From IMG/VR virus record IMGVR_UViG_3300042971_000032: DNA of 64,000 nucleotides, one strand, 5' to 3'. A model generated the notes under the pieces. It was not told the origin of the DNA. It searched no databases and saw nothing but the letters and a program-made list of their open reading frames with translations. Made by a program: the position numbers and the translations under genes. The DNA is from a virus. How positions within the stretch are numbered: the first letter of the stretch is position 1; the number at the start of each line of letters is the position of its first letter. Shown piece after piece: positions 8,261-25,368 of the stretch.

Positions 8261-8290
8261 GGGTGTCCTTCGGGATGCCCGTTATTTTTT
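8261..8290 (+). terminator. Intrinsic terminator after endolysin
   Basis: CGGGTGTCC-TTCG-GGATGCCCG hairpin followed by a T-run. Confidence 0.8.
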
Positions 8291-8301
8291 TGCCTCATTC
8301 C

Positions 8302-8572
8302 ATTTCCGATTTCTCTTTGAAAGTTCCGTTTATATGTGACGGGATGAAAAAAATCCCTCGGGCCATTTCCGATTTGCCCTCGAATGGTCCGCATACATAT
8401 GCGAGGAAGAAATTATCATGGACCGTTCAAAATCGCGTGCGAATGGTCCGCATATACTTGCAGGAAAATTTCACGTCCCGTCACAAAAACGCCCGGGAAG
8501 TGTCCGCTGATAGGTGAAAGCAAAGATTCCTTTGCTCAACCTTGCGGAAAATGTCCTGTGAGTAGTGAAGGG
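8302..8572 (+). promoter_or_regulatory. Stack of four bipartite operator/promoter-like sites
   Basis: Three N7-spaced sites (8302, 8365, 8425) and one TTTGCTCAA-N12-TGTCCTGTG site (8531); all recur in prophage 2. Confidence 0.65.
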
Positions 8573-8612
8573 ATTCCTGTATCGACGACCAAAGCGCAAA
8601 AGGAGATCAGAA

Positions 8613-9050
8613 ATGGCAAGAAAGATATCAGATGAAGAATTGGAGCAGGCAGTCCTGCTCAGAACAAACGGCATGAGTTATCGGAAAATCTCGGATTACA
8701 CCGGCCTCAATACAGAGGCTGTCCGGTATCGCTGCAAGGACCTGCCGTGCGACGATGCACCCGTCTTGGAAGGCGTGCTCACGAAGATCGAGCGCAGGGA
8801 AGCCTGCGCTTTTTGCGGAAAGCCCATCACACAGGATGAGCACCACCCGGGCAGACGGAAGCGCTTCTGCTGCGAGGCATGCCGCAGAAAGTACTGGAAG
8901 CTGCACCGGGATGAGCAGAAGAAAAAGCCCTCTGCGATCTACGTCAAGGTGTGCCCGTACTGCGGGAAGACCTTCGAGGTCTACGGCAACAGGAACCGGA
9001 AGTATTGCTGCCATGAGCACTATGTCCTCGACTACTTCGGGAAAGGCTAA
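8613..9050 (+). CDS. HTH + Cys-rich zinc-finger protein
   Basis: N-terminal HTH-like segment (GMSYRKISDYTGL), CxxC motifs (CAFCGK, CCEACR, CPYCGK), AGGAG RBS. Confidence 0.75.
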   Translation: MARKISDEELEQAVLLRTNGMSYRKISDYTGLNTEAVRYRCKDLPCDDAPVLEGVLTKIERREACAFCGKPITQDEHHPGRRKRFCCEACRRKYWKLHRDEQKKKPSAIYVKVCPYCGKTFEVYGNRNRKYCCHEHYVLDYFGKG

Positions 9051-9152
9051 GTTCCGATGATGCCCTTTATATAAATAAGGAAGAGAGGACCAAAAATGAC
9101 TTGATACTATTGCACTTCAGAGTGATCTATAGACTACCGAAAGGAGGCAATC

Positions 9153-9953
9153 ATGGAGATAACGACAACTATCACAGACAGGGCTGCACTGGTGCAGCTT
9201 TTGAAAAATGAGATAAAACAGCCCGTCGAATATGCCGGTGCTCCGACTTTCAACTACAGTGTCGGACCGTACACAGTTCTCCGGAACGCCAGCATCCGGG
9301 TAGATGATGACAAAGCGAGTCCAGCGCTGATCCAGAAGATGCAGGAGCTTGGATACGTCGCGAAGGACGACAGCTCCTCCGGGATGGGATTTGACATTGG
9401 CGGGGATGCCCTGACAAGAGTGAACCTTGTAAACACATTCGCGGCAAGGGGCTCGCTTATCAACAAGGCGATAGGCAAGCCGAATGCCTTCTATGTAGCG
9501 GCAGCGCTGGTACGGGTGCTGAAGGACAATCCTCCGGAGGACCTTTTCGAATTCAATGAAGCATTCATCGCCTGCGGAGGAGATAAAGCTCTGAAGGGCA
9601 TCACATTCCTGAAGGAAAAGGTAGTCTTCACCGGATTCCCGGATGGGCGTTCTGAAGAGGAGAAAGAGGCATTCCGTGATTTCGCAGAGACGATCACTGC
9701 CGCTTGCCGGCATTCCAAATGGCTGAAGGGTGATGCACCGGAAGTGGAGAACGAAAAGTACACCTTCCGCAGTTGGATGAACAGCATGGGACTTTCCGGG
9801 AAAAAACATACGGCAACGAGGCGTATCCTGCTCGAGCGCCTTTCCGGTGACAGTTCTTTCCGGACACCCGAGCAGAGAGCAGCGGCGCTTGCCAAGCAGA
9901 AAAAGAAGGAGGAAGAGCGTGACAACAAGCCAGATTTCATTGTCCTCGGCTGA
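9153..9953 (+). CDS. Hypothetical protein of recombinase module (paralogue of 47124-47834)
   Basis: GGAGG RBS; C-terminal ENEKY..R....G.SG....RRILL..LSG segment shared with two prophage-2 proteins. Confidence 0.7.
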   Translation: MEITTTITDRAALVQLLKNEIKQPVEYAGAPTFNYSVGPYTVLRNASIRVDDDKASPALIQKMQELGYVAKDDSSSGMGFDIGGDALTRVNLVNTFAARGSLINKAIGKPNAFYVAAALVRVLKDNPPEDLFEFNEAFIACGGDKALKGITFLKEKVVFTGFPDGRSEEEKEAFRDFAETITAACRHSKWLKGDAPEVENEKYTFRSWMNSMGLSGKKHTATRRILLERLSGDSSFRTPEQRAAALAKQKKKEEERDNKPDFIVLG

Positions 9954-11448
9954 TGCCGACAGTCATGTGATCCTTCTTCCTCATATCGAGAAGCCAAAGG
10001 ATCACAGGATACGGGCAGCGGTGTATTGCCGGGTATCGAGCAAGCACGAGGATCAGGAATATTCCCTCGAGAATCAGATCCGGCATTACCGGGAGACGAT
10101 CGGAGAAGACGGGCGCTACGAGCTTGTCGAGATCTACTACGACTTTGGTATCTCGGGATTCAAGGAAGCAAGGCCCGGGTTCCAGCGGATGCTCGAAGAA
10201 TCGAAAGACGGGAAGTTTGAGCTGGTCATCACGAAGTCCATCACCCGCTTTGCCCGGAACACAGCCACGGTGCTCGATGCCACAAGACTCCTGAAGAGCC
10301 GGGGCATCGGTGTGTTCTTCGAGCTGCAGCAGATCAACACCCTAGGGGAAGGCGGAGAGCTGCTCATGACACTGTTTGCTGCATTCGGACAGGCCGAGAG
10401 CGAATCCAACCGCCTCGGCACAAAGATGACGATCAAACGGAAGGTAGAGAAGCAGGAAGCCATCCAGCAGATCCAGCGGGTGTTCGGCTACACGAAGAAT
10501 GCAGATGGTGAGATCGTTCCGGATGAGAACGCAGGCCGCGTGCTGGAAATCTTCGAGATGGCAGCGGATGGATTCACAGTAGGGCAGATCACAAACTACC
10601 TGAACAGTGAGGGTGTGACGACAAAGCGGGGAGCTAAGTTCTACCGCACCACGGTGACAAGGATCCTCACGAACGAGGAGTACAAAGGTGACTTCGTGCA
10701 GTTCAAACACTACTCGGATGAACACCGGAAGGAGAGAAAGAACGCCGGAGAGCACGCCATGATCTATTATGCAGAGAATCATCCGCCGATCGTGACGAAT
10801 GAACTCTGGGAGAAAGCACAGCAGGCGCTTGGCGTCCGGCAGAATCCCAAGCCGGAACCGGAGGAAAAGCCCTTGCTCGACACGCTCCCATATCGGCATC
10901 AACTGTTCTGCGCGAAGTGCGGTCACCGGCTGATGCGTTCCTACACCGGAGGGAAGAACCGCTGGATCTGCTCGGGAAAAGAGAGGTTCAGCAGTGACTT
11001 CTGCTCCGGTGTTTCTATTCCCGACGAGGTGGTGAAGAGCTGGGGAGACTTTCCGGAAGACCGGTACATCAGCGAAACAACCGACCGGGGCCGGGTCACT
11101 GGTTTCACCTATGAGGACGGCGATACCTGGCATAAGAGCCATACGCGTAAGCGGCATGTCACGAAGGCACCTGCACTTACAGAAGAAAATTATCCCTATA
11201 AGGACCGGGTTTACTGCAAATACTGCGGAGGAAGGCTCCGGCGCATCATCGGAAACAACGGAAGCGTCTTCTGGATCTGCAACACGATGAGCCGGTATGG
11301 CAAGGATATCTGCAAGGGTGTTCGGGTGCCGGATGAGATGCTTCAATCTCTCCGCGATTACCCGGGCATCGTCTACATTGGAAAGGAGAACATTGATGGC
11401 AAGGAGCGTTACGGTTATTCCCGCCAGCCAGACAAGAAAATCAGCTGA
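9919..11448 (+). CDS. Large serine recombinase 1 (resolvase + recombinase + zinc-ribbon domains)
   Basis: AAVYCRVSS catalytic motif, ITKSITRFARN, Cys motifs; GTG start after GGAGG. Confidence 0.92.
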   Translation: MTTSQISLSSADADSHVILLPHIEKPKDHRIRAAVYCRVSSKHEDQEYSLENQIRHYRETIGEDGRYELVEIYYDFGISGFKEARPGFQRMLEESKDGKFELVITKSITRFARNTATVLDATRLLKSRGIGVFFELQQINTLGEGGELLMTLFAAFGQAESESNRLGTKMTIKRKVEKQEAIQQIQRVFGYTKNADGEIVPDENAGRVLEIFEMAADGFTVGQITNYLNSEGVTTKRGAKFYRTTVTRILTNEEYKGDFVQFKHYSDEHRKERKNAGEHAMIYYAENHPPIVTNELWEKAQQALGVRQNPKPEPEEKPLLDTLPYRHQLFCAKCGHRLMRSYTGGKNRWICSGKERFSSDFCSGVSIPDEVVKSWGDFPEDRYISETTDRGRVTGFTYEDGDTWHKSHTRKRHVTKAPALTEENYPYKDRVYCKYCGGRLRRIIGNNGSVFWICNTMSRYGKDICKGVRVPDEMLQSLRDYPGIVYIGKENIDGKERYGYSRQPDKKIS

Positions 11449-12775
11449 GGCGGAAAAGAAAAAGATACGGGTGGCAGCCTACTGCCGGGTATCAACGGAG
11501 CAGGAAGAACAGCTCGGATCCTTTGAGAATCAGGTGAGCTACTACACCGAGCTCATCAACAGCAAGCCCGACTGGGTGATGGCCGGGATCTTCTCGGACG
11601 AGGGCATTTCCGGCACCGGGACGAAGAAGCGTCAGGGCTTCCAGAACATGATCAGGGCCTGCCGCGAGGGAAAGGTTGATCGGGTGATTACGAAGTCAAT
11701 ATCCAGATTCGCTCGTAACACCGCTGACTGTCTGCATTACTCAAGAGAGCTGAAGGACCTCGGCATCCCCATTTTCTTCGAGAAGGAAGGGATAGATACG
11801 ATGGCGGCATCGGGTGAGCTGCTCTTCACGATCCTGTCCTCCCTTGCGCAGGAGGAGAGCCGGAACATTTCGGAGAATACCACATGGGGCATCCGGTCGA
11901 AATTCAAACAGGGTGTTCCGATGATTAACACTGGAAACTTCATGGGCTATGACAAAGACGAGAATGGGAAGCTGGTCATCAATCCTGAGCAGGCCAAGGT
12001 GGTGAAGCGAATCTTTCGGGAGTTCCTTGAGGGCTGGTCCACGCGGGAGATTGCACAGCGGCTCAACAGGGAGAAGATTCCCGGTGTGTCCGGCAAGGCA
12101 AAGTGGAATGGCTTCACCATCGAGCGTATGCTTCAGAATGAGAAATACAAGGGAGACCTCCTGATGCAGAAAACCTTCACGGCTGATTACCTCACCAAGA
12201 AGATGGTGGAGAACAACGGTGAACGGGATCAGTACTATGTGCAGGGAAACCACGAAGCGATTGTTTCTCCGGATGATTGGGAAGCAGCTCAGTTTGAGTT
12301 GAAACGGCGAGAAGGCTTCATGGAGAGCCACGGCATCAAGGAGATCAGCAGCCTTACCGGGACGGCATTCTACAATAAGGTCTATTGCGGCAAATGCGGC
12401 TGCAAGATGCAGCGGAGAAACCCGAAAGGAAATAAGCCATTCTGGAAATGCCTGAATACGGATAAGCGGAACGGCTATACCTGCGATGCAGGGAATGTTC
12501 GGGAGTCAGATCTTCGACAGGCCTTCGTCATCGCTTGGAACAGCCTTGTCGAGAACAGGGAGACGGAGCTGCCGCGCTGGAAGAAGATGATGGAATCAGA
12601 GAATGCTCTGGAACGCCTGAGAGGTCGACAGATGATCGAGCTCACGGCAGAAGGGCACTTGGACTTCGAAATCCCGGAACTCACCCGTATGGTTCTTGAT
12701 GAGGTCAGAGTCACCGATCCTAAGAGCTTTACGGTCAAGTTGCTGGATGGGACGGTGCGGAATATCAAGCTCTGA
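11396..12775 (+). CDS. Large serine recombinase 2
   Basis: AAYCRVST, ITKSISRFARN, CGKCG zinc ribbon; AGGAG RBS. Confidence 0.93.
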   Translation: MARSVTVIPASQTRKSAEAEKKKIRVAAYCRVSTEQEEQLGSFENQVSYYTELINSKPDWVMAGIFSDEGISGTGTKKRQGFQNMIRACREGKVDRVITKSISRFARNTADCLHYSRELKDLGIPIFFEKEGIDTMAASGELLFTILSSLAQEESRNISENTTWGIRSKFKQGVPMINTGNFMGYDKDENGKLVINPEQAKVVKRIFREFLEGWSTREIAQRLNREKIPGVSGKAKWNGFTIERMLQNEKYKGDLLMQKTFTADYLTKKMVENNGERDQYYVQGNHEAIVSPDDWEAAQFELKRREGFMESHGIKEISSLTGTAFYNKVYCGKCGCKMQRRNPKGNKPFWKCLNTDKRNGYTCDAGNVRESDLRQAFVIAWNSLVENRETELPRWKKMMESENALERLRGRQMIELTAEGHLDFEIPELTRMVLDEVRVTDPKSFTVKLLDGTVRNIKL

Positions 12776-12791
12776 GAAGGAGAGGAATGCA

Positions 12792-12821
12792 GCCCTGCCC
12801 GGTTGTGGCGGGGCCTTTTTT
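12792..12821 (+). terminator. Intrinsic terminator after recombinases
   Basis: GCCCTGCC...GGCGGGGC hairpin followed by a T-run. Confidence 0.7.
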
Positions 12822-13122
12822 CATCACTACCGATGTTGTGGGAAAGTGCATTTTTGCAAAGGTAGTCTTTCATTACGCGCATATAGTGTGTATAATTATA
12901 GTTTAGGAAAATAGTATCCAATAACTGATAATAGTGTTCAGAAATACCGATGAAGTGTGACTGGCAATAGCTGGTACCTTGGAAATTGAACAGGGAGGGC
13001 ACCTCTCCCATCATAGAGGGCAGATGCGCAGGAGAGGGCACAAAGTGGATTTACTAATATGCGCATAAGTCTGCAACACAATATATGGCATAGACAACGC
13101 ATAATCATAGGTAAAACCACAA

Positions 13123-13165
13123 GATATTGTGGCAGAAATGTGCCGGGCGTGCTGGTCGCGATCTC
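13123..13165 (+). other. Putative attR of prophage 1 (crossover GG at 13146-13147)
   Basis: Identity to the intact pilin gene (16745 onward) begins exactly at this GG; upstream sequence is non-pilin and follows the recombinase genes. Confidence 0.75.
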
Positions 13166-13511
13166 GATTCCGATCTTCACATCGCAGTTGGAGAAGAGCA
13201 GGGATGCTGTAACGCTGTCCAATATCAGGGCCGCATATGCTCAGGCACAGACTGCGGAGTTGACGGAGTCAAGTGACCCCACTAACAAGGTTACTTACAC
13301 CAAGAAAGGTGATGGGACTTCAACAGTTAAGGTAGAAGGTGTTGTTTCAAAAGGAACGCATGATGGACTAAATAATCTTGACCAGCTTCCGTTTGGCGAT
13401 AAGGTAAATGCATGGACCGCGAAGGCTAGTCTTGGTGGAACGCCTAAATCTTGGAATATTACATTTACCTATGATACAAATGGTGCAATCACCGCAGTAA
13501 TCGCTGAATAA
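13146..13511 (+). pseudogene. 5'-truncated type IV pilin (body A, lacks prepilin leader and FTLxE)
   Basis: Identical to 16745-17110 but preceded by non-pilin DNA. Confidence 0.88.
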
Positions 13512-13530
13512 CTTAGACACGAAGTCTAAA

Positions 13531-13564
13531 AAGAAGCCCTCCGGAGCAATCTGGAGGGTTTCTT
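13531..13564 (+). terminator. Terminator hairpin after pilin body A (copy at 17130-17163)
   Basis: AAGAAGCCCTCCGGA-gcaa-TCTGGAGGGTTTCTT. Confidence 0.8.
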
Positions 13565-13955
13565 CATATCAGAACCTAATTACGCGCGCCTGTCCATTGG
13601 TCTGTAGAACCCTTGTACTTTTGCACAGAATGAGGCTGTTTTCCACGGATTTCGGAACCTGCGGGCGTAATTAAAATTTTTCCTACGATGCGGTTCATCA
13701 AAAGCATGGATGGAGCGGCTCTCGGGTCCGCAAACAGCACGATCTTAGCGTGGACAAATGCGCAGAATAAGGCCATTTTCCGCAGATTTTGATACCTTGG
13801 GGCGTAATTAGATTTACTCCAACGATGACCAGATCGGATATATTCAAGGACTTGCATCATCACATGCTGCTTGCACAATAGTGCGTGATGAGCCTCGTTT
13901 CCGCAAATCAGCGGTATCCTGTGGCAGTATAATGGAACGGGAGGAGTGATGCTCA

Positions 13956-14504
13956 ATGAAAAAGAATAAGAAGGGCTTTACATTAGCGGAGCTCCTTATC
14001 GTGGTCGCCATCATTGCTGTGCTTGTCGCAATATCCATACCGATCTTTGCAAGACAGAAACTGAAGGCACAGGAAGCTGTCGATAAGGCTAATCTTCGTG
14101 CTGCATATGCAGAAGTGATGGCAGCTGCAGCATCCGATCCGGACCATTCGTGGTATGTGCCGGTTAAAATGACGCATAAAGGAAATTACGGAGTGAATAA
14201 TACGAGACAATTCTATTTAGCGTCAAGTGATGAGACGATTGCTGGTATTAATACTGCTGGAATTAATCATCCAAATGAGGGAACAGATAATACTTTATTT
14301 GTTGTCCTATATACTTCAGAGCAGGCAAAAATACTGGCAGAGCACAAAGGAGCATATGGGCATTATTATTTTTTACTGTTAGGACGCCAATATCCCGGCG
14401 CCAATTCGGATGATGAGCGATGGGTAGAGAATCCAGTGGTAGTAATAGCACAGGGTATTCCGGATAATATACACATTGATTTAGATATTGAGGAAGTAAA
14501 GTAA
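13956..14504 (+). CDS. Type IV prepilin (pilin 2)
   Basis: KKG|FTLAELLIVVAIIAVLVAISIP class III signal peptide. Confidence 0.92.
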   Translation: MKKNKKGFTLAELLIVVAIIAVLVAISIPIFARQKLKAQEAVDKANLRAAYAEVMAAAASDPDHSWYVPVKMTHKGNYGVNNTRQFYLASSDETIAGINTAGINHPNEGTDNTLFVVLYTSEQAKILAEHKGAYGHYYFLLLGRQYPGANSDDERWVENPVVVIAQGIPDNIHIDLDIEEVK

Positions 14505-14540
14505 ACTTATAGCCATTACTATTTATGGGAGGGACCACAG

Positions 14541-15044
14541 TTGAAGAAGAAATTGCATAAAGGCTTCACCCTCGCGGAACTCCTCATCGTGGTCGCCATC
14601 ATTGCTGTGCTTGTTGCCATCAGCATTCCGATCTTTACCTCCCAGCTCAGAAAGGCACGGCTGGCAGTGAACCAAGCCAATGCAAGAGCGGGAGAGGCAG
14701 CAGCCTGTGCTGCATATCTTGAGGACCCTTCCTATGATCTCATTGCGTATGATATCCGCTCTGGGAAGGTGGCAAAGTCGAAAACGTCCAATGATGAAAA
14801 TACGATAGTTAAAGAGCTGAACATAGGAGACAAAAGAAACATGGGATCCTATAAAGCCGATTATAATAAAATCCCTAATGATATATCTTCATGGACAGTA
14901 AGCACACATTTGACGAACAACGATGCTTATAAATTAGGAGATTATTATTTCTACCACTATATCTGCACGTTCAATAATGATGGAACCATTAAGCAGATTC
15001 AAGCGAATGATAATCACAAGTCGCAACCCAAGGATCCATATTGA
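14541..15044 (+). CDS. Type IV prepilin (pilin 3)
   Basis: HKG|FTLAE motif; TTG start after GGGAGG. Confidence 0.92.
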   Translation: MKKKLHKGFTLAELLIVVAIIAVLVAISIPIFTSQLRKARLAVNQANARAGEAAACAAYLEDPSYDLIAYDIRSGKVAKSKTSNDENTIVKELNIGDKRNMGSYKADYNKIPNDISSWTVSTHLTNNDAYKLGDYYFYHYICTFNNDGTIKQIQANDNHKSQPKDPY

Positions 15045-15093
15045 TGTGAGAAATCAGCGGTGAGCCGAGACAACGGAAGGAAGGTGACTGCGG

Positions 15094-15573
15094 ATGAAGA
15101 GAAAACAGAATAAAGGCTTCACACTTGCGGAATTATTAATTGTGGTCGCCATCATTGCTGTGCTCGTTGCGATCTCTATACCGATCTTCAGTAACCAACT
15201 TAGGAAAGCAAGGTTTGCTACAAATCTGGCAAATGCAAGAGCTGCAAAAGCTGCAGTGATTGCAGGTTATTTTGATACAAATGGGACAAGAATACATTGG
15301 AATTATGACACTAAAACCGGAACCGCTATTAAGCCATGGTATGATAATGCACTTGACCGTCAATCTCCGCAAAGCATGAAAGATCGTGGATTACCCCTTG
15401 AACGGGCCGTTATCTTAGGCTGGATACAGAGCGACCCTGCGGATTGGAACTCTCATTCTGAGAAGGACCTGAACGGTCAAGATCTAAGATTACTTGGCGA
15501 TCAGGTATATAGTACGATAGGAGTAGATCTTAACGAGGATGGAACAGTAAAATACTATTATTTCTACAAATAA
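15094..15573 (+). CDS. Type IV prepilin (pilin 4)
   Basis: NKG|FTLAE motif. Confidence 0.92.
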   Translation: MKRKQNKGFTLAELLIVVAIIAVLVAISIPIFSNQLRKARFATNLANARAAKAAVIAGYFDTNGTRIHWNYDTKTGTAIKPWYDNALDRQSPQSMKDRGLPLERAVILGWIQSDPADWNSHSEKDLNGQDLRLLGDQVYSTIGVDLNEDGTVKYYYFYK

Positions 15574-15663
15574 TATATGATTGTCGATCCAAGTGTTCAC
15601 ATACAGATTTAAGAATGAATGTAATGTGATGCTGATTTTTTCAGTGTGGAGGAGGAATGTCAG

Positions 15664-16128
15664 ATGAAGAGAAAAATGAATAAAGGCTTCACTCTTGCGG
15701 AACTCCTGATTGTGGTCGCCATCATAGCTGTGCTCGTGGCGATATCCATACCGATCTTCAGTAATCAGATTAAAAAAGCTCGACTTGCCACCAATCAGGC
15801 AAATGCCAGAGCTGCATATGCGGCATGGGTTGCTCAGTATATAGATGAGGGGATGCCGTTTCGTAAGGGTAGTGTTTATTATATTTATGATACAACGACC
15901 GGTAAAATCTCATCCTATACCTGGAGTGCTCGGAATTTTGGTGCTGAAGTTTGCAATTCGAACATGGATCAACCTATTACGGATATTTCTGCTTGGAAGA
16001 CAACAACCCGGGCAAATAAACCTGAGCGAAATTTAGGATCAAACGTCTACAAGTATTGGCAGATAAGAGTTACGGATGGAGAATTGTCTGCATATTATGC
16101 GTATCTCTATCCATCAGGTGACTATTAA
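15664..16128 (+). CDS. Type IV prepilin (pilin 5)
   Basis: NKG|FTLAE motif; ATG after GGAGG (alternative GTG at 15646). Confidence 0.92.
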   Translation: MKRKMNKGFTLAELLIVVAIIAVLVAISIPIFSNQIKKARLATNQANARAAYAAWVAQYIDEGMPFRKGSVYYIYDTTTGKISSYTWSARNFGAEVCNSNMDQPITDISAWKTTTRANKPERNLGSNVYKYWQIRVTDGELSAYYAYLYPSGDY

Positions 16129-16155
16129 AAGAGTAATGAGTAAAGAGATATTGGT

Positions 16156-16614
16156 ATGAAACACAGCGTGAAGAGAAAACAGAATAAAGGTTTCACTCTA
16201 GCGGAGCTCCTTATCGTGGTCGCCATCATTGCTGTGCTCGTTGCAATCAGCATACCGATCTTCAGTAAGCTGGTGCAGAAGGCAAGACTCGCCGCAAATC
16301 AGGCAAACGCCAGAGCTGCATATGCCGCGGTAGAAGCGGAATACATCACCAATAATCCTTCAGCGATGGATCCAGTGAGCGAAACTTATTACACTTATGA
16401 TGCATCGACAGGCAAGATAAAGATAATAAGATCAATTGGCGGCGGATATATGTCCGTTGGTGACGATAACTCAACTCCTTCATCTTGGTTGACATCTACA
16501 AGGATCGGTGGACATTGGGATTGGACCCTTGGCCAGCATGTATATAAGAAATGGTTGCTGGTTGTCAATAATGTAAGTGGGAAGGTAAGGGAATACATGG
16601 TATATCATGATTAG
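16156..16614 (+). CDS. Type IV prepilin (pilin 6)
   Basis: NKG|FTLAE motif. Confidence 0.92.
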   Translation: MKHSVKRKQNKGFTLAELLIVVAIIAVLVAISIPIFSKLVQKARLAANQANARAAYAAVEAEYITNNPSAMDPVSETYYTYDASTGKIKIIRSIGGGYMSVGDDNSTPSSWLTSTRIGGHWDWTLGQHVYKKWLLVVNNVSGKVREYMVYHD

Positions 16615-16650
16615 CTTTTAACTTTTTTAGATATGGAACTTTCACAACAT

Positions 16651-16672
16651 TGGTATGCTTATGGTAGGGAGG
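16651..16672 (+). promoter_or_regulatory. Extended -10 promoter and RBS for the IIGVL pilin (copy at 20250-20271)
   Basis: TG-G-TATGCT followed by GGGAGG; no clear -35. Confidence 0.45.
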
Positions 16673-16675
16673 TAG

Positions 16676-17110
16676 GTGACCATCATGAAAAACAAGAATA
16701 AAGGCTTCACACTTGGGGAACTCCTCATTGTGGTCGCCATCATCGGCGTGCTGGTCGCGATCTCGATTCCGATCTTCACATCGCAGTTGGAGAAGAGCAG
16801 GGATGCTGTAACGCTGTCCAATATCAGGGCCGCATATGCTCAGGCACAGACTGCGGAGTTGACGGAGTCAAGTGACCCCACTAACAAGGTTACTTACACC
16901 AAGAAAGGTGATGGGACTTCAACAGTTAAGGTAGAAGGTGTTGTTTCAAAAGGAACGCATGATGGACTAAATAATCTTGACCAGCTTCCGTTTGGCGATA
17001 AGGTAAATGCATGGACCGCGAAGGCTAGTCTTGGTGGAACGCCTAAATCTTGGAATATTACATTTACCTATGATACAAATGGTGCAATCACCGCAGTAAT
17101 CGCTGAATAA
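16676..17110 (+). CDS. Type IV prepilin, leader + body A (candidate major pilin; contains intact attB-like site)
   Basis: NKG|FTLGELLIVVAIIGVL; short Ala/Thr/Gly-rich body; followed by a terminator. Confidence 0.9.
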   Translation: MTIMKNKNKGFTLGELLIVVAIIGVLVAISIPIFTSQLEKSRDAVTLSNIRAAYAQAQTAELTESSDPTNKVTYTKKGDGTSTVKVEGVVSKGTHDGLNNLDQLPFGDKVNAWTAKASLGGTPKSWNITFTYDTNGAITAVIAE

Positions 17111-17554
17111 CTTAGACACGAAGTCTAAAAAGAAGCCCTCCGGAGCAATCTGGAGGGTTTCTTCATATCAGAACCTAATTACGCGCGCCTGTCCATTGGT
17201 CTGTAGAACCCTTGTACTTTTGCACAGAATGAGGCTGTTTTCCACGGATTTCGGAACCTGCGGGCGTAATTAAAATTTTTCCTACGATGCGGTTCATCAA
17301 AAGCATGGATGGAGCGGCTCTCGGGTCCGCAAACAGCACGATCTTAGCGTGGACAAATGCGCAGAATAAGGCCATTTTCCGCAGATTTTGATACCTTGGG
17401 GCGTAATTAGATTTACTCCAACGATGACCAGATCGGATATATTCAAGGACTTGCATCATCACATGCTGCTTGCACAATAGTGCGTGATGAGCCTCGTTTC
17501 CGCAAATCAGCGGTATCCTGTGGCAGTATAATGGAACGGGAGGAGTGATGCTCA

Positions 17555-18103
17555 ATGAAAAAGAATAAGAAGGGCTTTACATTAGCGGAGCTCCTTATCG
17601 TGGTCGCCATCATTGCTGTGCTTGTCGCAATATCCATACCGATCTTTGCAAGACAGAAACTGAAGGCACAGGAAGCTGTCGATAAGGCTAATCTTCGTGC
17701 TGCATATGCAGAAGTGATGGCAGCTGCAGCATCCGATCCGGACCATTCGTGGTATGTGCCGGTTAAAATGACGCATAAAGGAAATTACGGAGTGAATAAT
17801 ACGAGACAATTCTATTTAGCGTCAAGTGATGAGACGATTGCTGGTATTAATACTGCTGGAATTAATCATCCAAATGAGGGAACAGATAATACTTTATTTG
17901 TTGTCCTATATACTTCAGAGCAGGCAAAAATACTGGCAGAGCACAAAGGAGCATATGGGCATTATTATTTTTTACTGTTAGGACGCCAATATCCCGGCGC
18001 CAATTCGGATGATGAGCGATGGGTAGAGAATCCAGTGGTAGTAATAGCACAGGGTATTCCGGATAATATACACATTGATTTAGATATTGAGGAAGTAAAG
18101 TAA
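17555..18103 (+). CDS. Type IV prepilin (pilin 2, copy 2)
   Basis: Identical protein to 13956-14504. Confidence 0.92.
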   Translation: MKKNKKGFTLAELLIVVAIIAVLVAISIPIFARQKLKAQEAVDKANLRAAYAEVMAAAASDPDHSWYVPVKMTHKGNYGVNNTRQFYLASSDETIAGINTAGINHPNEGTDNTLFVVLYTSEQAKILAEHKGAYGHYYFLLLGRQYPGANSDDERWVENPVVVIAQGIPDNIHIDLDIEEVK

Positions 18104-18139
18104 ACTTATAGCCATTACTATTTATGGGAGGGACCACAG

Positions 18140-18643
18140 TTGAAGAAGAAATTGCATAAAGGCTTCACCCTCGCGGAACTCCTCATCGTGGTCGCCATCA
18201 TTGCTGTGCTTGTTGCCATCAGCATTCCGATCTTTACCTCCCAGCTCAGAAAGGCACGGCTGGCAGTGAACCAAGCCAATGCAAGAGCGGGAGAGGCAGC
18301 AGCCTGTGCTGCATATCTTGAGGACCCTTCCTATGATCTCATTGCGTATGATATCCGCTCTGGGAAGGTGGCAAAGTCGAAAACGTCCAATGATGAAAAT
18401 ACGATAGTTAAAGAGCTGAACATAGGAGACAAAAGAAACATGGGATCCTATAAAGCCGATTATAATAAAATCCCTAATGATATATCTTCATGGACAGTAA
18501 GCACACATTTGACGAACAACGATGCTTATAAATTAGGAGATTATTATTTCTACCACTATATCTACACGTTCAATAATGATGGAACCATTAAGCAGATTCA
18601 AGCGAATGATAATCACAAGTCGCAACCCAAGGATCCATATTGA
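18140..18643 (+). CDS. Type IV prepilin (pilin 3, copy 2; Cys>Tyr variant)
   Basis: HYIYTF vs HYICTF in copy 1. Confidence 0.92.
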   Translation: MKKKLHKGFTLAELLIVVAIIAVLVAISIPIFTSQLRKARLAVNQANARAGEAAACAAYLEDPSYDLIAYDIRSGKVAKSKTSNDENTIVKELNIGDKRNMGSYKADYNKIPNDISSWTVSTHLTNNDAYKLGDYYFYHYIYTFNNDGTIKQIQANDNHKSQPKDPY

Positions 18644-18692
18644 TGTGAGAAATCAGCGGTGAGCCGAGACAACGGAAGGAAGGTGACTGCGG

Positions 18693-19172
18693 ATGAAGAG
18701 AAAACAGAATAAAGGCTTCACACTTGCGGAATTATTAATTGTGGTCGCCATCATTGCTGTGCTCGTTGCGATCTCTATACCGATCTTCAGTAACCAACTT
18801 AGGAAAGCAAGGTTTGCTACAAATCTGGCAAATGCAAGAGCTGCAAAAGCTGCAGTGATTGCAGGTTATTTTGATACAAATGGGACAAGAATACATTGGA
18901 ATTATGACACTAAAACCGGAACCGCTATTAAGCCATGGTATGATAATGCACTTGACCGTCAATCTCCGCAAAGCATGAAAGATCGTGGATTACCCCTTGA
19001 ACGGGCCGTTATCTTAGGCTGGATACAGAGCGACCCTGCGGATTGGAACTCTCATTCTGAGAAGGACCTGAACGGTCAAGATCTAAGATTACTTGGCGAT
19101 CAGGTATATAGTACGATAGGAGTAGATCTTAACGAGGATGGAACAGTAAAATACTATTATTTCTACAAATAA
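18693..19172 (+). CDS. Type IV prepilin (pilin 4, copy 2)
   Basis: Identical protein to 15094-15573. Confidence 0.92.
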   Translation: MKRKQNKGFTLAELLIVVAIIAVLVAISIPIFSNQLRKARFATNLANARAAKAAVIAGYFDTNGTRIHWNYDTKTGTAIKPWYDNALDRQSPQSMKDRGLPLERAVILGWIQSDPADWNSHSEKDLNGQDLRLLGDQVYSTIGVDLNEDGTVKYYYFYK

Positions 19173-19262
19173 TATATGATTGTCGATCCAAGTGTTCACA
19201 TACAGATTTAAGAATGAATGTAATGTGATGCTGATTTTTTCAGTGTGGAGGAGGAATGTCAG

Positions 19263-19727
19263 ATGAAGAGAAAAATGAATAAAGGCTTCACTCTTGCGGA
19301 ACTCCTGATTGTGGTCGCCATCATAGCTGTGCTCGTGGCGATATCCATACCGATCTTCAGTAATCAGATTAAAAAAGCTCGACTTGCCACCAATCAGGCA
19401 AATGCCAGAGCTGCATATGCGGCATGGGTTGCTCAGTATATAGATGAGGGGATGCCGTTTCGTAAGGGTAGTGTTTATTATATTTATGATACAACGACCG
19501 GTAAAATCTCATCCTATACCTGGAGTGCTCGGAATTTTGGTGCTGAAGTTTGCAATTCGAACATGGATCAACCTATTACGGATATTTCTGCTTGGAAGAC
19601 AACAACCCGGGCAAATAAACCTGAGCGAAATTTAGGATCAAACGTCTACAAGTATTGGCAGATAAGAGTTACGGATGGAGAATTGTCTGCATATTATGCG
19701 TATCTCTATCCATCAGGTGACTATTAA
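19263..19727 (+). CDS. Type IV prepilin (pilin 5, copy 2)
   Basis: Identical protein to copy 1. Confidence 0.92.
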   Translation: MKRKMNKGFTLAELLIVVAIIAVLVAISIPIFSNQIKKARLATNQANARAAYAAWVAQYIDEGMPFRKGSVYYIYDTTTGKISSYTWSARNFGAEVCNSNMDQPITDISAWKTTTRANKPERNLGSNVYKYWQIRVTDGELSAYYAYLYPSGDY

Positions 19728-19754
19728 AAGAGTAATGAGTAAAGAGATATTGGT

Positions 19755-20213
19755 ATGAAACACAGCGTGAAGAGAAAACAGAATAAAGGTTTCACTCTAG
19801 CGGAGCTCCTTATCGTGGTCGCCATCATTGCTGTGCTCGTTGCAATCAGCATACCGATCTTCAGTAAGCTGGTGCAGAAGGCAAGACTCGCCGCAAATCA
19901 GGCAAACGCCAGAGCTGCATATGCCGCGGTAGAAGCGGAATACATCACCAATAATCCTTCAGCGATGGATCCAGTGAGCGAAACTTATTACACTTATGAT
20001 GCATCGACAGGCAAGATAAAGATAATAAGATCAATTGGCGGCGGATATATGTCCGTTGGTGACGATAACTCAACTCCTTCATCTTGGTTGACATCTACAA
20101 GGATCGGTGGACATTGGGATTGGACCCTTGGCCAGCATGTATATAAGAAATGGTTGCTGGTTGTCAATAATGTAAGTGGGAAGGTAAGGGAATACATGGT
20201 ATATCATGATTAG
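19755..20213 (+). CDS. Type IV prepilin (pilin 6, copy 2)
   Basis: Identical protein to 16156-16614. Confidence 0.92.
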   Translation: MKHSVKRKQNKGFTLAELLIVVAIIAVLVAISIPIFSKLVQKARLAANQANARAAYAAVEAEYITNNPSAMDPVSETYYTYDASTGKIKIIRSIGGGYMSVGDDNSTPSSWLTSTRIGGHWDWTLGQHVYKKWLLVVNNVSGKVREYMVYHD

Positions 20214-20274
20214 CTTTTAACTTTTTTAGATATGGAACTTTCACAACATTGGTATGCTTATGGTAGGGAGGTAG

Positions 20275-21135
20275 GTGACCATCATGAAAAACAAGAATAA
20301 AGGCTTCACACTTGGGGAACTCCTCATTGTGGTCGCCATCATCGGAGTACTGGTTGCAATATCCATCCCGATCTTTACCTCTCAGCTCGAGAAAGCCAGA
20401 GAAGCAACGGACGCGGCGAATATTCGATCACAGTATGCAGAGGTGATGGCAGAGGCAATAACCGATGGCGGCGATGTAAACGGCATGGATATGTTCGGTG
20501 CCGTGGTGCTCAAGCAGAAGAAAGATCAATGGCAGAGCGCAGGGCTAAAGAAAAATCTGGAAGGTGTATATCAGAGCATAGAAGGTGACTATCCGAAAGC
20601 TGGCGGCACTGCTTGGGTTGAGTATAAGAATGACAAGGTGATCCTTCACTATGGAGACGGAAGTGGAAATGCTGGTGGAGGAAGTACCGGAGGTGAAAAC
20701 ACTGGTGACGGAAGTGGCTCCGGCTCTTTAGCAAATCCAGATGAGATTAATTCGAGTACACAACTTCCTAATGCTTTCAATACCTCGATAAATGATTGGG
20801 ATAAAATCGTAAGTAATAATCCAAGTTATAATATTGTTCCAGGAATGGTATACGGCTACCAAGGATCAATTTACTTCGGTACAAGCAATACAGAAGTTAA
20901 GAATGATCAGTATACTCACCAGGGTTTGAATGACGCTGTTGCTTGGTTTGCTGCAGCAAAATATACTGGAAAAATTTGGAGCTCATCTGATTTTGAAAAT
21001 CAGAGATATGATATTACCAGAGGAGATATCTGTAAGGTTGGTAAGGATTATTATGTTTTCAAAGATGGTGGCAATACATCATCCGGACCAGAGAAAGCAA
21101 GCTGGCAATGGCAAAAGATTAACCTGAATGAATAA
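20275..21135 (+). CDS. Type IV prepilin, leader + body B with Gly/Ser linker and extra C-terminal domain
   Basis: Same leader as 16676 up to GG 20344-5, then a unique 286-aa product. Confidence 0.9.
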   Translation: MTIMKNKNKGFTLGELLIVVAIIGVLVAISIPIFTSQLEKAREATDAANIRSQYAEVMAEAITDGGDVNGMDMFGAVVLKQKKDQWQSAGLKKNLEGVYQSIEGDYPKAGGTAWVEYKNDKVILHYGDGSGNAGGGSTGGENTGDGSGSGSLANPDEINSSTQLPNAFNTSINDWDKIVSNNPSYNIVPGMVYGYQGSIYFGTSNTEVKNDQYTHQGLNDAVAWFAAAKYTGKIWSSSDFENQRYDITRGDICKVGKDYYVFKDGGNTSSGPEKASWQWQKINLNE

Positions 21136-21491
21136 GATCGTTATAAAGTTCACATCCCGTATCCCAGTCATCCTTTTGCCTCCGAAAGCCCGGACTGCTT
21201 CCCGGATTTTAAAACCGTGGACTGGGGCTTTATGTGCACTCAGAAAGCACCCTCAGTAGAGCGGCTTTACCATCATTCGGTGTGTTGCCGACAATGGTTG
21301 AGCGCGAGAATACAGTCAAGTTATCGGGGTGTTTGTGAAAGGAATAGATGGCGGTGCGGGATGAATGCCTGCATCGCTTTTTCGTCCTCATCAGTTTTGA
21401 TTACACATGTTCATTTTTCAGAGCTCAATGTCCGGCGTTCATGGTATACTGATTTTATCCAATCATTTTTTACACGCGGGGGACTGCTGCT

Positions 21492-23825
21492 ATGATTCTT
21501 GATAAAAAGCAGATGACCGAGGAGGATATCAAGCTCAATTACATCACGCCTGCCATCAACCGGAGCGGGTGGGTGAATGGCGTCAACATCACCATGGAGA
21601 CGAGGATCACGGATGGACGGATCAATCTCCGTGGCAACATGGCATATCGTGAAAACCCTAAGAAGGTCGATTATCTTCTCTATTTGAACAAATATCATCC
21701 GATTGCTGTTGTGGAAGCAAAGGATAATACACACACGGCCGGTTTTGGCATGCAACAGGCGATGACCTATGCCCAGATGCTGGATGTCCCTTTTGCGTAC
21801 AGTTCCAATGGCGATGCGTTTTTAGAGCATGACTTTCTGACTGGTCAAGAGCGGCAGATTGCAATGGATGCGTTTCCCTGTCAGGAGGAACTGCTCAAAA
21901 GATACCAGCAGAATGTGAATGACGGAAAGGGCCTGAATGAAGAGGAGACAAAGCTCATTGAGCAGCCCTACTACTCCAGTCCGTCTCTTTATTCGCCGAG
22001 GTATTATCAGCGCAATGCGGTGAACCGCACGCTCGATGCTATCGCTCGCGGACAGAATCGTATTCTTCTTGTGATGGCGACTGGTACCGGCAAGACTTAC
22101 ACGGCTTTTCAGATTGTTTACCGTCTGTTGAAGAGCGGGGTGAAAAAGAAAGTCCTTTACCTTGCGGACCGCAACAATCTGGTCGATCAGTCGATTCAGC
22201 GGGATTTTGCTCCGCTCGCAGGGGTTACTCACAAGGTTAACTTTGCAAAAGACAGCAAAGACACGATCACTTCCTATCAGGTTTATTTTGCTCTCTACCA
22301 GCAGCTGGTCGGGGACAACGATCAGGAGCACTACAGTGAACTCTTTGATCCGGAGTTCTTCGATCTCATCATTGTCGATGAGTGCCACCGCGGCTCCGCA
22401 AAGGAGGACAGCAGATGGCGCAGGATTCTGGACTACTTCCGTGACGCCACCCAGATCGGTATGACCGCGACACCAAAAGAGACGGAGTATGTTTCGAATA
22501 CCACCTATTTTGGTGAACCAGTTTACAGCTACAGCCTGAAGGAAGGTATCGATGATGGATTCCTTGCGCCATTCAAGGTGTATGGGATAACGCTGAACAT
22601 TTCCGATGGTTGGAGACCGTATAAGGGTCAGAAGGACTACTACGGTAATGAGATCGAGGACCGGATTTATAACAATACGGACTACGACTACAACATCATC
22701 CTCGCGGACCGAATTCAGGAGGTCGCCTTCCGGATTACCGAGTTTCTGAAGGCTACGGACCGGATGCAGAAGACGATTGTATTCTGCGCGACAGAAGCCG
22801 CAGCGGAACGGATGCGGGAGGCACTCGTCAACCTGAATACGGACATGGTAAAGCAGAACCCGGACTATGTGGTTCGCATTACCGGAAACGATGACTACGG
22901 GAATAGTAAGCTGGACTATTTCATCTCGGTATCGAGCAAATATCCGGTGATCGCAACGACCTCAGAATTGCTCTCGACCGGAACCGACTGCAAGATGACA
23001 AAGCTCATTGTCATTGACAAGAACGTCAACTCCATGACACAGTTCAAGCAGATGATCGGGCGAGGGACCAGAGTGCGCGAGGACCAGGGTAAGCTGTTCT
23101 TCACAATCATGGACTTCCGGGGCGTGGCGAGGCTCTTCGCTGATCCGGACTGGGATGGCCCGGTGGAGATCAACGAGAACTTTGAGCCCGGGCAGGGTGA
23201 CCGCTCGCCGGTTAAGGTGGAACCAGACAAACCGCCTGTGGAAAAACCACCAATGCCCTACGTGGACGCGAGTGGTTGTCCGGTAGACGTTGTCAGGGAA
23301 ACGGTCTCTGTCTATGATTCAGGAGGCAAGCTCCTTCGGCAGGAGAACATTATCGACTATACGAGAAGAAACATTCGTGGCGATTATGCGGATCTTGGCG
23401 CATTTGTGCGCAGATGGTCGCAGGCCGATAAGAAGGAAGCAATCTCTGAAGAGCTAAAGAAACATGGCATCGACCTTGAGAAGATGAAAAAGGATCAGCA
23501 CATGGAGGACGTGGATGATTTCGATTTTATTACTCACGTTGCCTATGACCAGAAGCCGCTGACGAGAAAAGAACGCGCAGAGAACGTCAAGAAGAGCGAC
23601 TTCCTGCACAAGTACAGTGGTGTGGCGCAGGAAATCATTGAGGCGTTGCTCGAACGGTATGCCAATGAAGGCATTTACGAAATCGAGCGGAAGGAAATCT
23701 TGAAGCTGGATCCTTTCCGGAAACTTGGCTCTCCTGCGCGGATTGCAAAGTATTTCGGCGGGAAGGAAGGATATCTTAAGGCGGTGCATGAGCTGGAATC
23801 GGCGATCTACATGCAGGCCTTATGA
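21492..23825 (+). CDS. hsdR: Type I restriction enzyme R subunit
   Basis: VVEAK nuclease motif, MATGTGKT Walker A, DECH box, C-terminal LERY...LDPFRKLG segment. Confidence 0.93.
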   Translation: MILDKKQMTEEDIKLNYITPAINRSGWVNGVNITMETRITDGRINLRGNMAYRENPKKVDYLLYLNKYHPIAVVEAKDNTHTAGFGMQQAMTYAQMLDVPFAYSSNGDAFLEHDFLTGQERQIAMDAFPCQEELLKRYQQNVNDGKGLNEEETKLIEQPYYSSPSLYSPRYYQRNAVNRTLDAIARGQNRILLVMATGTGKTYTAFQIVYRLLKSGVKKKVLYLADRNNLVDQSIQRDFAPLAGVTHKVNFAKDSKDTITSYQVYFALYQQLVGDNDQEHYSELFDPEFFDLIIVDECHRGSAKEDSRWRRILDYFRDATQIGMTATPKETEYVSNTTYFGEPVYSYSLKEGIDDGFLAPFKVYGITLNISDGWRPYKGQKDYYGNEIEDRIYNNTDYDYNIILADRIQEVAFRITEFLKATDRMQKTIVFCATEAAAERMREALVNLNTDMVKQNPDYVVRITGNDDYGNSKLDYFISVSSKYPVIATTSELLSTGTDCKMTKLIVIDKNVNSMTQFKQMIGRGTRVREDQGKLFFTIMDFRGVARLFADPDWDGPVEINENFEPGQGDRSPVKVEPDKPPVEKPPMPYVDASGCPVDVVRETVSVYDSGGKLLRQENIIDYTRRNIRGDYADLGAFVRRWSQADKKEAISEELKKHGIDLEKMKKDQHMEDVDDFDFITHVAYDQKPLTRKERAENVKKSDFLHKYSGVAQEIIEALLERYANEGIYEIERKEILKLDPFRKLGSPARIAKYFGGKEGYLKAVHELESAIYMQAL

Positions 23826-23835
23826 GGAATAATAG

Positions 23836-25368
23836 ATGAGCGATTTAGGAAGTTTTGTAAAACGGCTGAGAGACATCATGCGGAATGACGCAGGTATCAA
23901 TGGTGATGCCCAGCGGATCGAGCAGATCGCATGGATCCTGTTTCTGAAGGTCTACGACGCACAGGAGGAGAACTGGGAATTCGATCAGGAGGATTATGTC
24001 TCGATCATTCCGGAGGAGTGCCGCTGGCGCAACTGGGCAGTAGATGATGGAAAAGGCAATGCTCTGACCGGAGATCAGCTGCTCGATTTTGTGAACAACC
24101 GGCTGTTTCCGGTACTCAAGGGAACAGATGTAAAGGACGCAAGCGGAAACATTCTCCTGCATGGCATCCAGGTTGACAGGGACACACCCATCAATAAGGC
24201 GATTGTGCAGGCAACCTTTCAGGATGCCAACCAGTACATGAAGGACGGCGTTCTTCTCCGACAGGTGATTAATGTCATCGACAGCGTGGACTTTGGAAGC
24301 TATGAAGACAGCCACGCCTTTGGCGACATCTATGAGTCTATTTTGAAGGAGCTGCAGAGCGCAGGTTCCGCAGGTGAGTTCTACACGCCCCGTGCCGTCA
24401 CGGACTTCATGGCGGAGATGATCAAGCCGAAGATCGGCGAGCATATGGCGGATTTTGCGTGTGGCACGGGTGGATTCATGGTGAGCTGGCTGACAGAGCT
24501 TTCCAGACAGGTGAAGGATACGGAGGATTCCAAGGCGCTCAGTGAGTCTATCTATGGCATGGAGAAAAAACAGTTCCCGTACATGCTCTGCGTCACCAAC
24601 CTTCTGCTGCATGGTGTGGATGTACCGAGGGTGTATCACGGGAACTCCCTGATGCACGACGTTCTTGATTACACGGAGAAGGACCAGTTTGACGTGATCC
24701 TGATGAATCCGCCCTATGGAGGTTCCGAGAAAAACGACGTGAAGAACCACTTTCCCTCGGAACTTGCAAGCTCCGAGACAGCGGATCTTTTCATGTCGGT
24801 CATCATGTACCGCTTAAAGCAGGGCGGCAGAGCAGCCGTTATCCTGCCGGATGGGTTTTTATTTGGTACCGATAATACGAAGGTGGCAATTAAGAAAAAG
24901 CTCTTGACGGAGTTCAACCTGCACACCATCATTCGGATGCCAGGCAGCGTTTTCTCGCCGTATACGTCCATCACGACCAATATCCTGTTCTTCGATCATA
25001 CCGGCGCGACCAAGGAAACCTGGTTCTATCGTCTTGACATGCCGGAGGGCTACAAGCACTTTAGTAAGACCAGGCCAATGAAATCCGAGCACTTTGATCC
25101 GGTGCGTGAGTGGTGGAACAACCGGACGGAGATCAAGGATCAGGACACCGACACATGGAAGGCAAAGAAGTACACCGCACAGGAGATCGCAGACGGCGGA
25201 TTCAACCTGGATCTCTGCGGCTATCCGCATGAGGAAGAGGAGATCCTTGCGCCGCTCGATCTGATCCAGCAGTATCAGGAGAAACGCGCCAGTCTGAACG
25301 CGGAGATCGATCATGTACTTGATGAGATCGTGGCGCTTCTGCCGCATGACGAGGGAGGAGAACAGTGA
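23836..25368 (+). CDS. hsdM: Type I R-M methyltransferase subunit
   Basis: GEFYTPR, DFACGTGG and NPPY motifs. Confidence 0.95.
   Translation: MSDLGSFVKRLRDIMRNDAGINGDAQRIEQIAWILFLKVYDAQEENWEFDQEDYVSIIPEECRWRNWAVDDGKGNALTGDQLLDFVNNRLFPVLKGTDVKDASGNILLHGIQVDRDTPINKAIVQATFQDANQYMKDGVLLRQVINVIDSVDFGSYEDSHAFGDIYESILKELQSAGSAGEFYTPRAVTDFMAEMIKPKIGEHMADFACGTGGFMVSWLTELSRQVKDTEDSKALSESIYGMEKKQFPYMLCVTNLLLHGVDVPRVYHGNSLMHDVLDYTEKDQFDVILMNPPYGGSEKNDVKNHFPSELASSETADLFMSVIMYRLKQGGRAAVILPDGFLFGTDNTKVAIKKKLLTEFNLHTIIRMPGSVFSPYTSITTNILFFDHTGATKETWFYRLDMPEGYKHFSKTRPMKSEHFDPVREWWNNRTEIKDQDTDTWKAKKYTAQEIADGGFNLDLCGYPHEEEEILAPLDLIQQYQEKRASLNAEIDHVLDEIVALLPHDEGGEQ

Follow-up and report, generated by a model that had tools for sequence, protein, structure and literature searches.

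How did a run of type IV pilin genes lying between two prophages come to change partner three times at one and the same dinucleotide, and does the outermost pilin body at this locus belong to the host or to a phage? These questions are raised by the window analysed here, that is, the whole 64,000 nucleotides of the virus record IMGVR_UViG_3300042971_000032 (all coordinates refer to this window), whose host is a Lachnospiraceae bacterium from a bioreactor. Our preferred explanation, to which we assign a probability of roughly 70%, is that the two prophages (prophage 1 on the left, prophage 2 on the right) represent pilin-integrating phages, that one pilin body, body B, arrived on the phage side of an attachment (att) site and gave rise to a hybrid pilin, and that recombination between the left site (attL) of prophage 2 and the right site (attR) of prophage 1 duplicated the pilin genes. 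According to this model, temperate tailed phages of Lachnospiraceae, with two overlapping recombinase genes at their right end, would enter pilin genes at the GG of the segment encoding AIIG/VL. Integration would split the pilin, the promoter and leader being kept at attL and the old body left leaderless at attR, and the phage DNA at attL would open in frame with the leaderless pilin body B, allowing the lysogen to make a hybrid pilin with a new and twice larger head. Behind body B would come defence cargo that can be exchanged, in this case a type I restriction-modification system. Prophage 1 would reside in the gene of another body, body A, and prophage 2 at a site 7.2 kb downstream. The features that carry this argument are the following.

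9967-11448, + strand: large serine recombinase 1 (493 amino acids; Resolvase, Recombinase and Zn_ribbon_recom domains; YCRVSS; phrog_95 integrase)
11396-12775, + strand: large serine recombinase 2 (459 amino acids, overlapping recombinase 1; Resolvase, Recombinase and Zn_ribbon_recom domains; YCRVST)
12776-13145, + strand: right arm of prophage 1, the P side of the att site; the same arm joins body E in contig L108
13146-21135, + strand: pilin gene region, with pilin bodies, leaders and full pilins
13146-13147, + strand: GG crossover between phage arm and body A, attR of prophage 1; homology to contigs L139, L140 and L143 begins here
13146-13511, + strand: leaderless copy of body A, then a stem-loop and a 445-bp gap
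13146-16744, + strand: tandem copy 1 (body A, gap, pilins 1-5, leader)
13956-16614, + strand: pilins 1-5 of copy 1 (N_methyl motif; Ala, GCT, at the crossover position)
16745-20343, + strand: tandem copy 2, the same unit as copy 1
16685-17110, + strand: hybrid pilin of 141 amino acids, pilin 6 leader with body A; GG at 16745-16746, a recombinant attB-type site
20284-21135, + strand: hybrid pilin of 283 amino acids, the same leader with body B; GG at 20344-20345, most likely attL of prophage 2

All three junctions fall on the GG of the Gly codon in IIG/VL and read ...GTGCCG-GG-CGTGCTGG at 13146, ...ATCATC-GG-CGTGCTGG at 16745 and ...ATCATC-GG-AGTACTGG at 20344. Since the partners differ both in the base before and in the base after the GG, exchange is confined to the two shared bases. 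Positions 13146-16746 equal 16745-20345 with a period of 3599 and a single mismatch (14965/18564), forming a head-to-tail repeat of a 3,599-bp unit that comprises body A, the stem-loop, the 445-bp gap, pilins 1-5 and a 60-base leader. The other five pilins in each copy have GC(T), encoding Ala, at the crossover position, and no further pilin leader or phage-arm-like sequence was found anywhere in the 64 kb. All complete pilins match PF07963 and display the G/FTL.E motif, the hydrophobic helix and the globular body of type IV pilins.

Immediately upstream, the two overlapping genes encode large serine recombinases, both of which match PF00239, PF07508 and PF13408 above the cut-off. The two proteins are 34% identical, and the catalytic-serine motif (YCRVSS and YCRVST, respectively) aligns between the paralogues. 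As expected for strand exchange at a central dinucleotide, the GG alone is common to the partners and the homology to two empty sites begins at the GG. With directly oriented sites throughout and serine recombinases as enzymes, the locus differs from a shufflon, which has inverted sites and a tyrosine (Rci) or Piv recombinase. In the IMG/VR loci with relatives 69-78% identical to recombinase 2 (L029 and L031-L034), a leaderless pilin body comes next in every case, and recombinases with ~49% identity have no such body behind them; the recombinases obtained from GenBank phages are just 52% identical. The small genes near the recombinases gave no telling match, and no candidate for a directionality factor emerged among them. 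An earlier note on this DNA had claimed that the three junctions change partner at the same GG, that the remaining five pilins carry Ala and lack the GG, that two large serine recombinases lie just upstream and that their crossover point is the GG, a site that puts different heads behind one leader; the two-base overlap, the one-mismatch repeat, the domains and the catalytic motif agree with it on all these counts.

The empty sites define the first junction. In phage-free relatives (L139, L140 and L143), pilB, pilT and pilC are accompanied by an intact pilin gene, in which a native leader (leader0) is joined through the GG to body A, by the same gap and by pilin 1, and these contigs match the window at 98-99.5% from exactly 13146 onward. 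Relatives thus have the intact native body A gene (P0242 and P0247). Because the intact gene of phage-free relatives matches from exactly this position, 13146 is attR of prophage 1, as had been proposed; the alignments indicate that prophage 1 split the body A gene at the GG. After pilC, the body A gene is the first pilin in L143 and the second in L139 and L140, and the body A pilin is probably the major one. One assembly of this locus (contig Ga0558709_325, seen as L106:7040-7070 and as L001; equivalent to 13141-13147 of the window) lacks five bases (CCGGG) exactly at the core of this attR and reads ...GAAATGTG-CGTGCTGG; the loss is either a repair scar at a recombinase cleavage site that would lock prophage 1 in place, or a sequencing error.

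Body A is one of several targets. The arm of the prophage 1 type is joined to bodies A and E, the latter in L108, which comes from another sample, and that of the prophage 2 type leads into C or D; elsewhere, the genes of E and C occur in intact form. Beyond the window, the right end of prophage 2 (L016/L017) comprises two recombinases and the arm ...GAAATGTGCCG-GG-, which is 91% identical to that of prophage 1; behind the GG lie pilin body C, yfhO and more pilins. The corresponding phage-free contig, L163, reads pilC-leaderC-GG-body C-yfhO and is 99.2% identical to the lysogen contig L016 from exactly the GG. One model of the earlier note (model 1) had predicted a phage-GG-body A junction at this end: a pilin body indeed follows the GG, but it is a third one, C, rather than A. 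A close relative with body C-yfhO was not found among 401 genomes of the family. The protein encoded directly behind body C, in the lysogen as well as in the phage-free relative, is a YfhO-family membrane protein of 899 amino acids (L016:14526-17225) and may be a glycosyltransferase partner of the pilus. As a candidate for the left end of prophage 1 we considered L024, which is found in the same runs. Its pilB, pilT and pilC, however, share only 66-70% identity with the genes adjacent to body A or C in relatives, and the record is not among the contigs that carry the 266-amino-acid protein of prophage 1; this reading was not adopted.

A different element (L028) encodes a single serine recombinase of 539 amino acids and has another arm at the same GG, an arm that recurs in two Porcincola contigs. 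In total, 11 distinct arm-GG-body junctions with at least four arm types were collected, and the insertion lies inside the pilin reading frame, as in the comYC-type prophages discussed below. The right arm was of one class (class I, GG[C/T]GT...ATC..ATTCC) in 11 of 11 junctions; the same class occurs in the first pilins after pilC. The body B genes and several short pilins carry a second class (class II, GGAGT...GC[A/G]ATATCCATCC). The separation between class I in the targets hit and class II in the body B arms (Fisher P = 6e-4) fits distinct bacterial-side and phage-side half sites. In the phage arm, the heptamer GATATTG occurs at a distance of 17-23 bases from the core, compared with 12-18 bases for its reverse complement in the body B arm (13116-13147 and 20344-20375). 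The copy in the body B arm is thus 5 bases nearer the core, an offset of the kind known between attP-type and attB-type half sites; because ordinary host pilins share this body-side sequence, the offset is no more than a lead. In run X1, over 12600-13150 of the window, the contig with the right arm of prophage 2 reaches a depth of 672 compared with ~65 for pilin contigs and ends just past GGCGT. In the abundant strains of that run, the prophage 2 arm is probably joined to several class I bodies and not to body B.

The middle junction had been taken for an intact attB in model 1, and it does have the class I right arm of all hit targets. The leader at 16745 is identical to the leader in front of body B and agrees with the native leader of body A in relatives at only 41-43 of 60 bases, whereas the body behind it is 98-99.5% identical. 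Owing to this mismatch, 16745 is not an untouched ancestral attB, but a recombinant attB-type joint. The alternative model of the earlier note (model 2), which regarded the leader-body A gene as a recombinant hybrid, was right in this respect; its assumption that body B is a host gene is not favoured. The structure is matched to the base by an excision-type exchange between sister chromosomes, in which attL of prophage 2 (leader-GG-B) would recombine with attR of prophage 1 (arm-GG-A). The product would be a new attB-type gene, leader-GG-A, with a class I arm, and everything between the two sites would be duplicated, yielding the 3,599-bp tandem repeat; the reciprocal product would be arm-GG-B with the block deleted. 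The recombinases, together with a directionality factor, would thus have made the duplication.

Could the repeat and the leader-body A hybrid have an origin independent of the recombinases, in unequal exchange driven by homology or microhomology, or in an assembly error? Pilin N-termini are similar, and the pilin loci are mosaic also through ordinary homologous exchange: the contigs L165 and L163, for instance, part 88 bases after the GG rather than at it. Nevertheless, we regard such an origin as highly improbable and largely refuted. Because the joint shares just two bases, homologous exchange is excluded there, and with it the route that had been named as capable of overturning the recombinase model; moreover, both outer edges of the repeat coincide with independently defined att crossovers. 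The two-copy arrangement is present in contigs from three Joint Genome Institute (JGI) samples, which retain, in the same copy order, the single G/A difference at 14965/18564, corresponding to Cys142Tyr in pilin 2. The leader-body A joint is also bridged without mismatch by short-read Logan contigs (L006; X5 record 19), as found by comparing the Logan contigs of eight runs, in which cross-mapping from other pilins was heavy. Given the same two copies in three samples and the bridged joint, the duplication is no assembly artefact; it is genuine and fixed in this strain.

The third junction behaves as attL of prophage 2, as the earlier note had it, and body B is most likely the phage-side arm. 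Conservative recombination requires a leader-GG-phage junction, and 20344 (or its equivalent before the duplication) is the sole leader-GG site available for prophage 2. The order body B, variable cargo, same phage early genes recurs in three upstream contexts. In the window, pilin 5 lies upstream of the leader of body B. In L024, a gene for 142 amino acids takes this place, body B is 96% identical and hsdS is a different one. In L144, a GYF gene and another leader precede body B, which is followed by SymE/HTH genes and a different type I system, and then by DNA 99% identical to the L024 phage. Furthermore, in three pairs of body B proteins the bodies (~270-280 amino acids) are 100% identical and the leaders differ right up to the codon preceding the Gly. 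L162 has, behind an HNH_2 gene, a non-pilin arm that continues into body B, the open reading frame following body B and hsdR, and its homology to the window begins exactly at 20344; this joint may be of the attP type. The leaders thus vary and break at the GG, unlike in a self-contained phage pilin gene with a leader of its own such as P-FimU (see below). The open hybrid reading frame and the identical bodies with differing leaders speak for the proposal that the phage arm encodes an in-frame pilin body, body B being the presumptive attP arm. Body B evolves under purifying selection, with a ratio of nonsynonymous to synonymous substitution rates (dN/dS) of 0.17-0.24.

Several observations weigh against a phage origin of body B. 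The predicted attP, arm-GG-body B, is absent from the viral and metagenome scans and from the Logan contigs of the eight runs; exact searches with the sequence of the phage arm or of the body B arm gave no match in viral or metagenome contigs, a profile of the C-terminal part of body B had no match in IMG/VR, and GenBank phages yielded just one weak match, to the pilin N-terminal part. Viral contigs with related repressors are too distant and lack body B. Body-B-like pilins end the pilin arrays of three genomes for which a DUF2800 query revealed no such phage, and in two of these (L132 and L133) the pilin is followed by fragments of the same restriction-modification genes and then by host GGDEF genes; we take these pilins for decayed inserts, though they could be the native source. 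The L024 leader is identical to that of the window at 58 of 60 bases despite the different upstream gene, and leader and body may have moved together in that case. Finally, prophage 2 has pilin 5-leader on its left, whereas body C natively follows pilC-leaderC, as in phage-free L163. The flanks of prophage 2 being no native partners, at least one further flank exchange must have taken place, either by recombination of two related prophages with deletion of the DNA between them or by another att exchange, unless the strains differ here.

On these grounds body B and the restriction-modification genes might be a resident host module, the last pilin of the array with a defence island behind it. 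Prophage 2 would then lie downstream, with its true attL (leaderC-GG-phage) deleted, and 20344 would be an intact host pilin gene that resembles an attL. Such a module would account for the genomes that, devoid of the phage by the DUF2800 query, have an array, a body-B-like pilin, a 92-codon open reading frame, restriction fragments and host GGDEF genes in this order, and it accords with the MKKNKNK-type leader being the commonest partner of body B, with the almost identical leader in L024, with the lack of the native left flank of body C in the window and with viral collections devoid of body B. Yet we consider it unlikely, for attL would have to have been lost independently in the window, L024 and L144, each time with different cargo before the same phage DNA; neither the identical bodies with different leaders nor the start of the L162 homology at the GG behind a non-pilin arm would be explained; and the restriction genes in phage-free genomes are truncated, as decayed inserts would be. 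Just as improbable in our estimate is that body B and its cargo form a separate mobile cassette or satellite, which uses the phage recombinases at the same GG and lies in tandem with the phage without being packaged. The cargo behind body B is exchangeable, and body B, the 92-codon open reading frame and hsdR occur behind another arm beside the HNH_2 gene (L162) and also without an adjacent phage; in addition, HsdR and HsdM are far closer to their Porcincola homologues than the adjacent pilin is (see below). A cassette of this kind should nonetheless have its own arm-GG-body junction between cargo and phage, and none is seen in the window, L024 or L144. If body B came with the phage, as we prefer, it would be part of attP in the free phage, and the hybrid pilins would be expressed and would alter properties of the pilus such as adhesion or phage adsorption. 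The most far-reaching version, in which attP lies inside a leaderless pilin gene, lysogeny amounts to an in-frame head swap of the major pilin, the att sites of the several elements that hit this multi-copy family keep recombining and the phages constitute a mobile, recombinase-driven head-shuffling system, is tentative, and we lean slightly against it.

The structure predicted for the body B hybrid (mean predicted local distance difference test score, pLDDT, of 79, and >90 in the C-terminal domain) consists of an N-terminal helix (residues 10-61) and a small pilin domain, which a disordered Gly/Ser linker (127-149) connects to a beta-rich domain (150-283). Fold searches returned pilin-like matches. 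The beta-rich domain, for which Pfam gave no match, has weak fold similarity to chitin-binding type-3 modules and to the binding modules of a Vibrio chitin deacetylase (E ~0.01-0.03), so that the extra domain offers a lead, not a finding, towards an adhesive or shielding appendage.

The remaining parts of the window belong to the two prophages.

1-13145, + strand: right part of prophage 1 (tape measure to 2075, tail genes, holin, lysin, small genes, two recombinases and right arm; Pfam)
7277-8239, + strand: GH25/LysM lysin of prophage 1 (Pfam)
21217-27954, + strand: left-arm cargo of prophage 2 (92-codon open reading frame, type I hsdR/hsdM/hsdS, HNH-like gene)
21492-26852, + strand: type I restriction-modification genes hsdR/hsdM/hsdS, cargo behind body B
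27109-27954, + strand: low-G+C, HNH-like gene that separates hsdS from the repressor
28657-64000, + strand: prophage 2 proper, S24 repressor first, continuing past the window end
From 28657, + strand: genes of prophage 2 ahead of the terminase (S24 repressor, DUF2800 nuclease, family A polymerase, VapE primase-helicase, SNF2)
50862-52490, + strand: terminase of prophage 2, then portal, capsid and a MazE/PIN pair
59999-62650, + strand: tape measure of prophage 2

Where they overlap, the two prophages form direct repeats at an offset of 60575 with 76-84% identity. Contrary to what had been stated, the phage genes of prophage 2 do not begin directly after body B: the 92-codon open reading frame, the restriction-modification genes and the HNH-like gene intervene before the S24 repressor. 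In a Porcincola isolate (L128:5255-10591), the HsdR and HsdM proteins are 93-95% identical to those of the window, HsdS 47% and the adjacent pilin 64%, and other contigs of the same genome encode a recombinase with 78% and a repressor with 98% identity; this comparison suggests that the restriction-modification cargo moved horizontally of late and had its specificity swapped. Another Porcincola contig (L161; C30, reverse, 4109-5369) encodes a pilin of 311 amino acids that has Ala at the crossover position and ends in a leucine-rich-repeat-like part. This contig lacks body B; 24 bases past the pilin lies a 302-base piece 96% identical to 21344-21645 of the window, followed by unrelated genes and then by a repressor 98% identical to that of prophage 2. 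The HNH-like gene has an unusually low G+C content (36%), a C-terminus resembling HNH or homing endonucleases, and no counterpart in L024. In prophage 2, the pair of MazE-like antitoxin and PIN-domain toxin (59173-59927; Pfam on L010) separates the tail genes from the tape measure. In another sample, this prophage occurs as a variant (L011:3560-4777) that has an IS110-family transposase among its head genes and lacks the HNH gene beside the portal. Five copies of a motif of ~46 bases (...GTTCAAAATC-N7-...TGGTCCGCATATAC...) are common to 8364-8524, upstream of the recombinase module of prophage 1, and 30415-30747, in the early region of prophage 2, and could act as operators or promoters.

Type IV pili serve in adhesion and motility and are often used by phages as receptors, and to our knowledge the diversification of pilin subunits in gut and bioreactor Firmicutes is poorly understood. 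At the locus described here, integration itself appears to rewrite the exposed part of the pilin. As the promoter and signal peptide are those of the host, body B would require neither a promoter nor a leader from the phage for lysogenic conversion. In the head-shuffling version of the model, the consequences would be an altered receptor, the exclusion of phages that bind pili, or adhesion of a new kind conferred by the carbohydrate-binding-like domain. The conserved N-terminal pilin codons are a landing site common to at least four recombinase-bearing elements, which could explain part of the mosaicism of pilin loci. The system is open to direct tests, as it comprises defined crossover sites of two bases, relatives with empty sites, a recombinant that arose naturally between sites of two prophages, and two recombinases; it also offers new attB/attP pairs for serine integrase tools. 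We found no paper in which pilins, serine integrases or recombinases, attB and prophages are connected in this way. New are the target, namely the conserved helix codons of type IV pilins, the paired recombinases encoded by the elements and the natural recombinant between the att sites of two prophages that re-paired a leader and a body; in addition, an in-frame body that takes the place of the old one appears to come from the phage arm.

Site-specific switching of pilin C-termini is known from the R64 shufflon (Rci, PilV) and from the Piv inversion of tfpQ/tfpI in Moraxella, where tyrosine or DEDD recombinases invert DNA at a dedicated host or plasmid locus. As in those systems, a recombinase acts within the pilin frame and a constant N-terminus is joined to alternative parts; unlike there, the sites are direct, the enzyme is a large serine recombinase of a phage, and the outcomes are integration, duplication and deletion. 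Mycobacteriophage BPs provides a precedent for integration that alters a gene product, its attP lying in a phage coding sequence and integration-dependent immunity resulting from removal of the repressor C-terminus, whereas here a host N-terminus would be added to a phage-borne body, given the attP location that we propose. Two adjacent paralogous large serine recombinases on a single integrating element are also found in SCCmec (CcrA/CcrB), which is, however, no phage and does not target pilins. Among prophages with large serine integrases that interrupt host genes are SPbeta in spsM (PMC5499854) and Listeria A118 in comK (PMC3556126). The likeness extends to a large serine recombinase at the prophage end, a dinucleotide crossover within coding sequence and the possibility of precise rejoining upon excision. 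In those cases the gene is simply split by an element with one recombinase, whereas here there are two, the phage arm would continue the frame with another body, and the target is a multi-copy gene family, so that att sites of different prophages can recombine. Streptococcal prophages in the competence pilin gene comYC/comGC (PMC12378983; PPH100, PMC8637289) are likewise temperate phages inside the gene of a type IV pilin-like major subunit; their insertion is reported to disrupt the gene and block competence and involves a 17-base att core, and the parts of these reports available to us describe neither a replacement body nor a serine crossover in the helix codons. The prophage-encoded minor pilin P-FimU of Pseudomonas, finally, replaces the host subunit and can protect against other pilus-binding phages (PMC12952977). 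There, too, a prophage supplies a pilus subunit, but P-FimU is a complete phage gene, whereas the phages of the present locus would bring only the body and borrow the promoter and leader of the host through integration.

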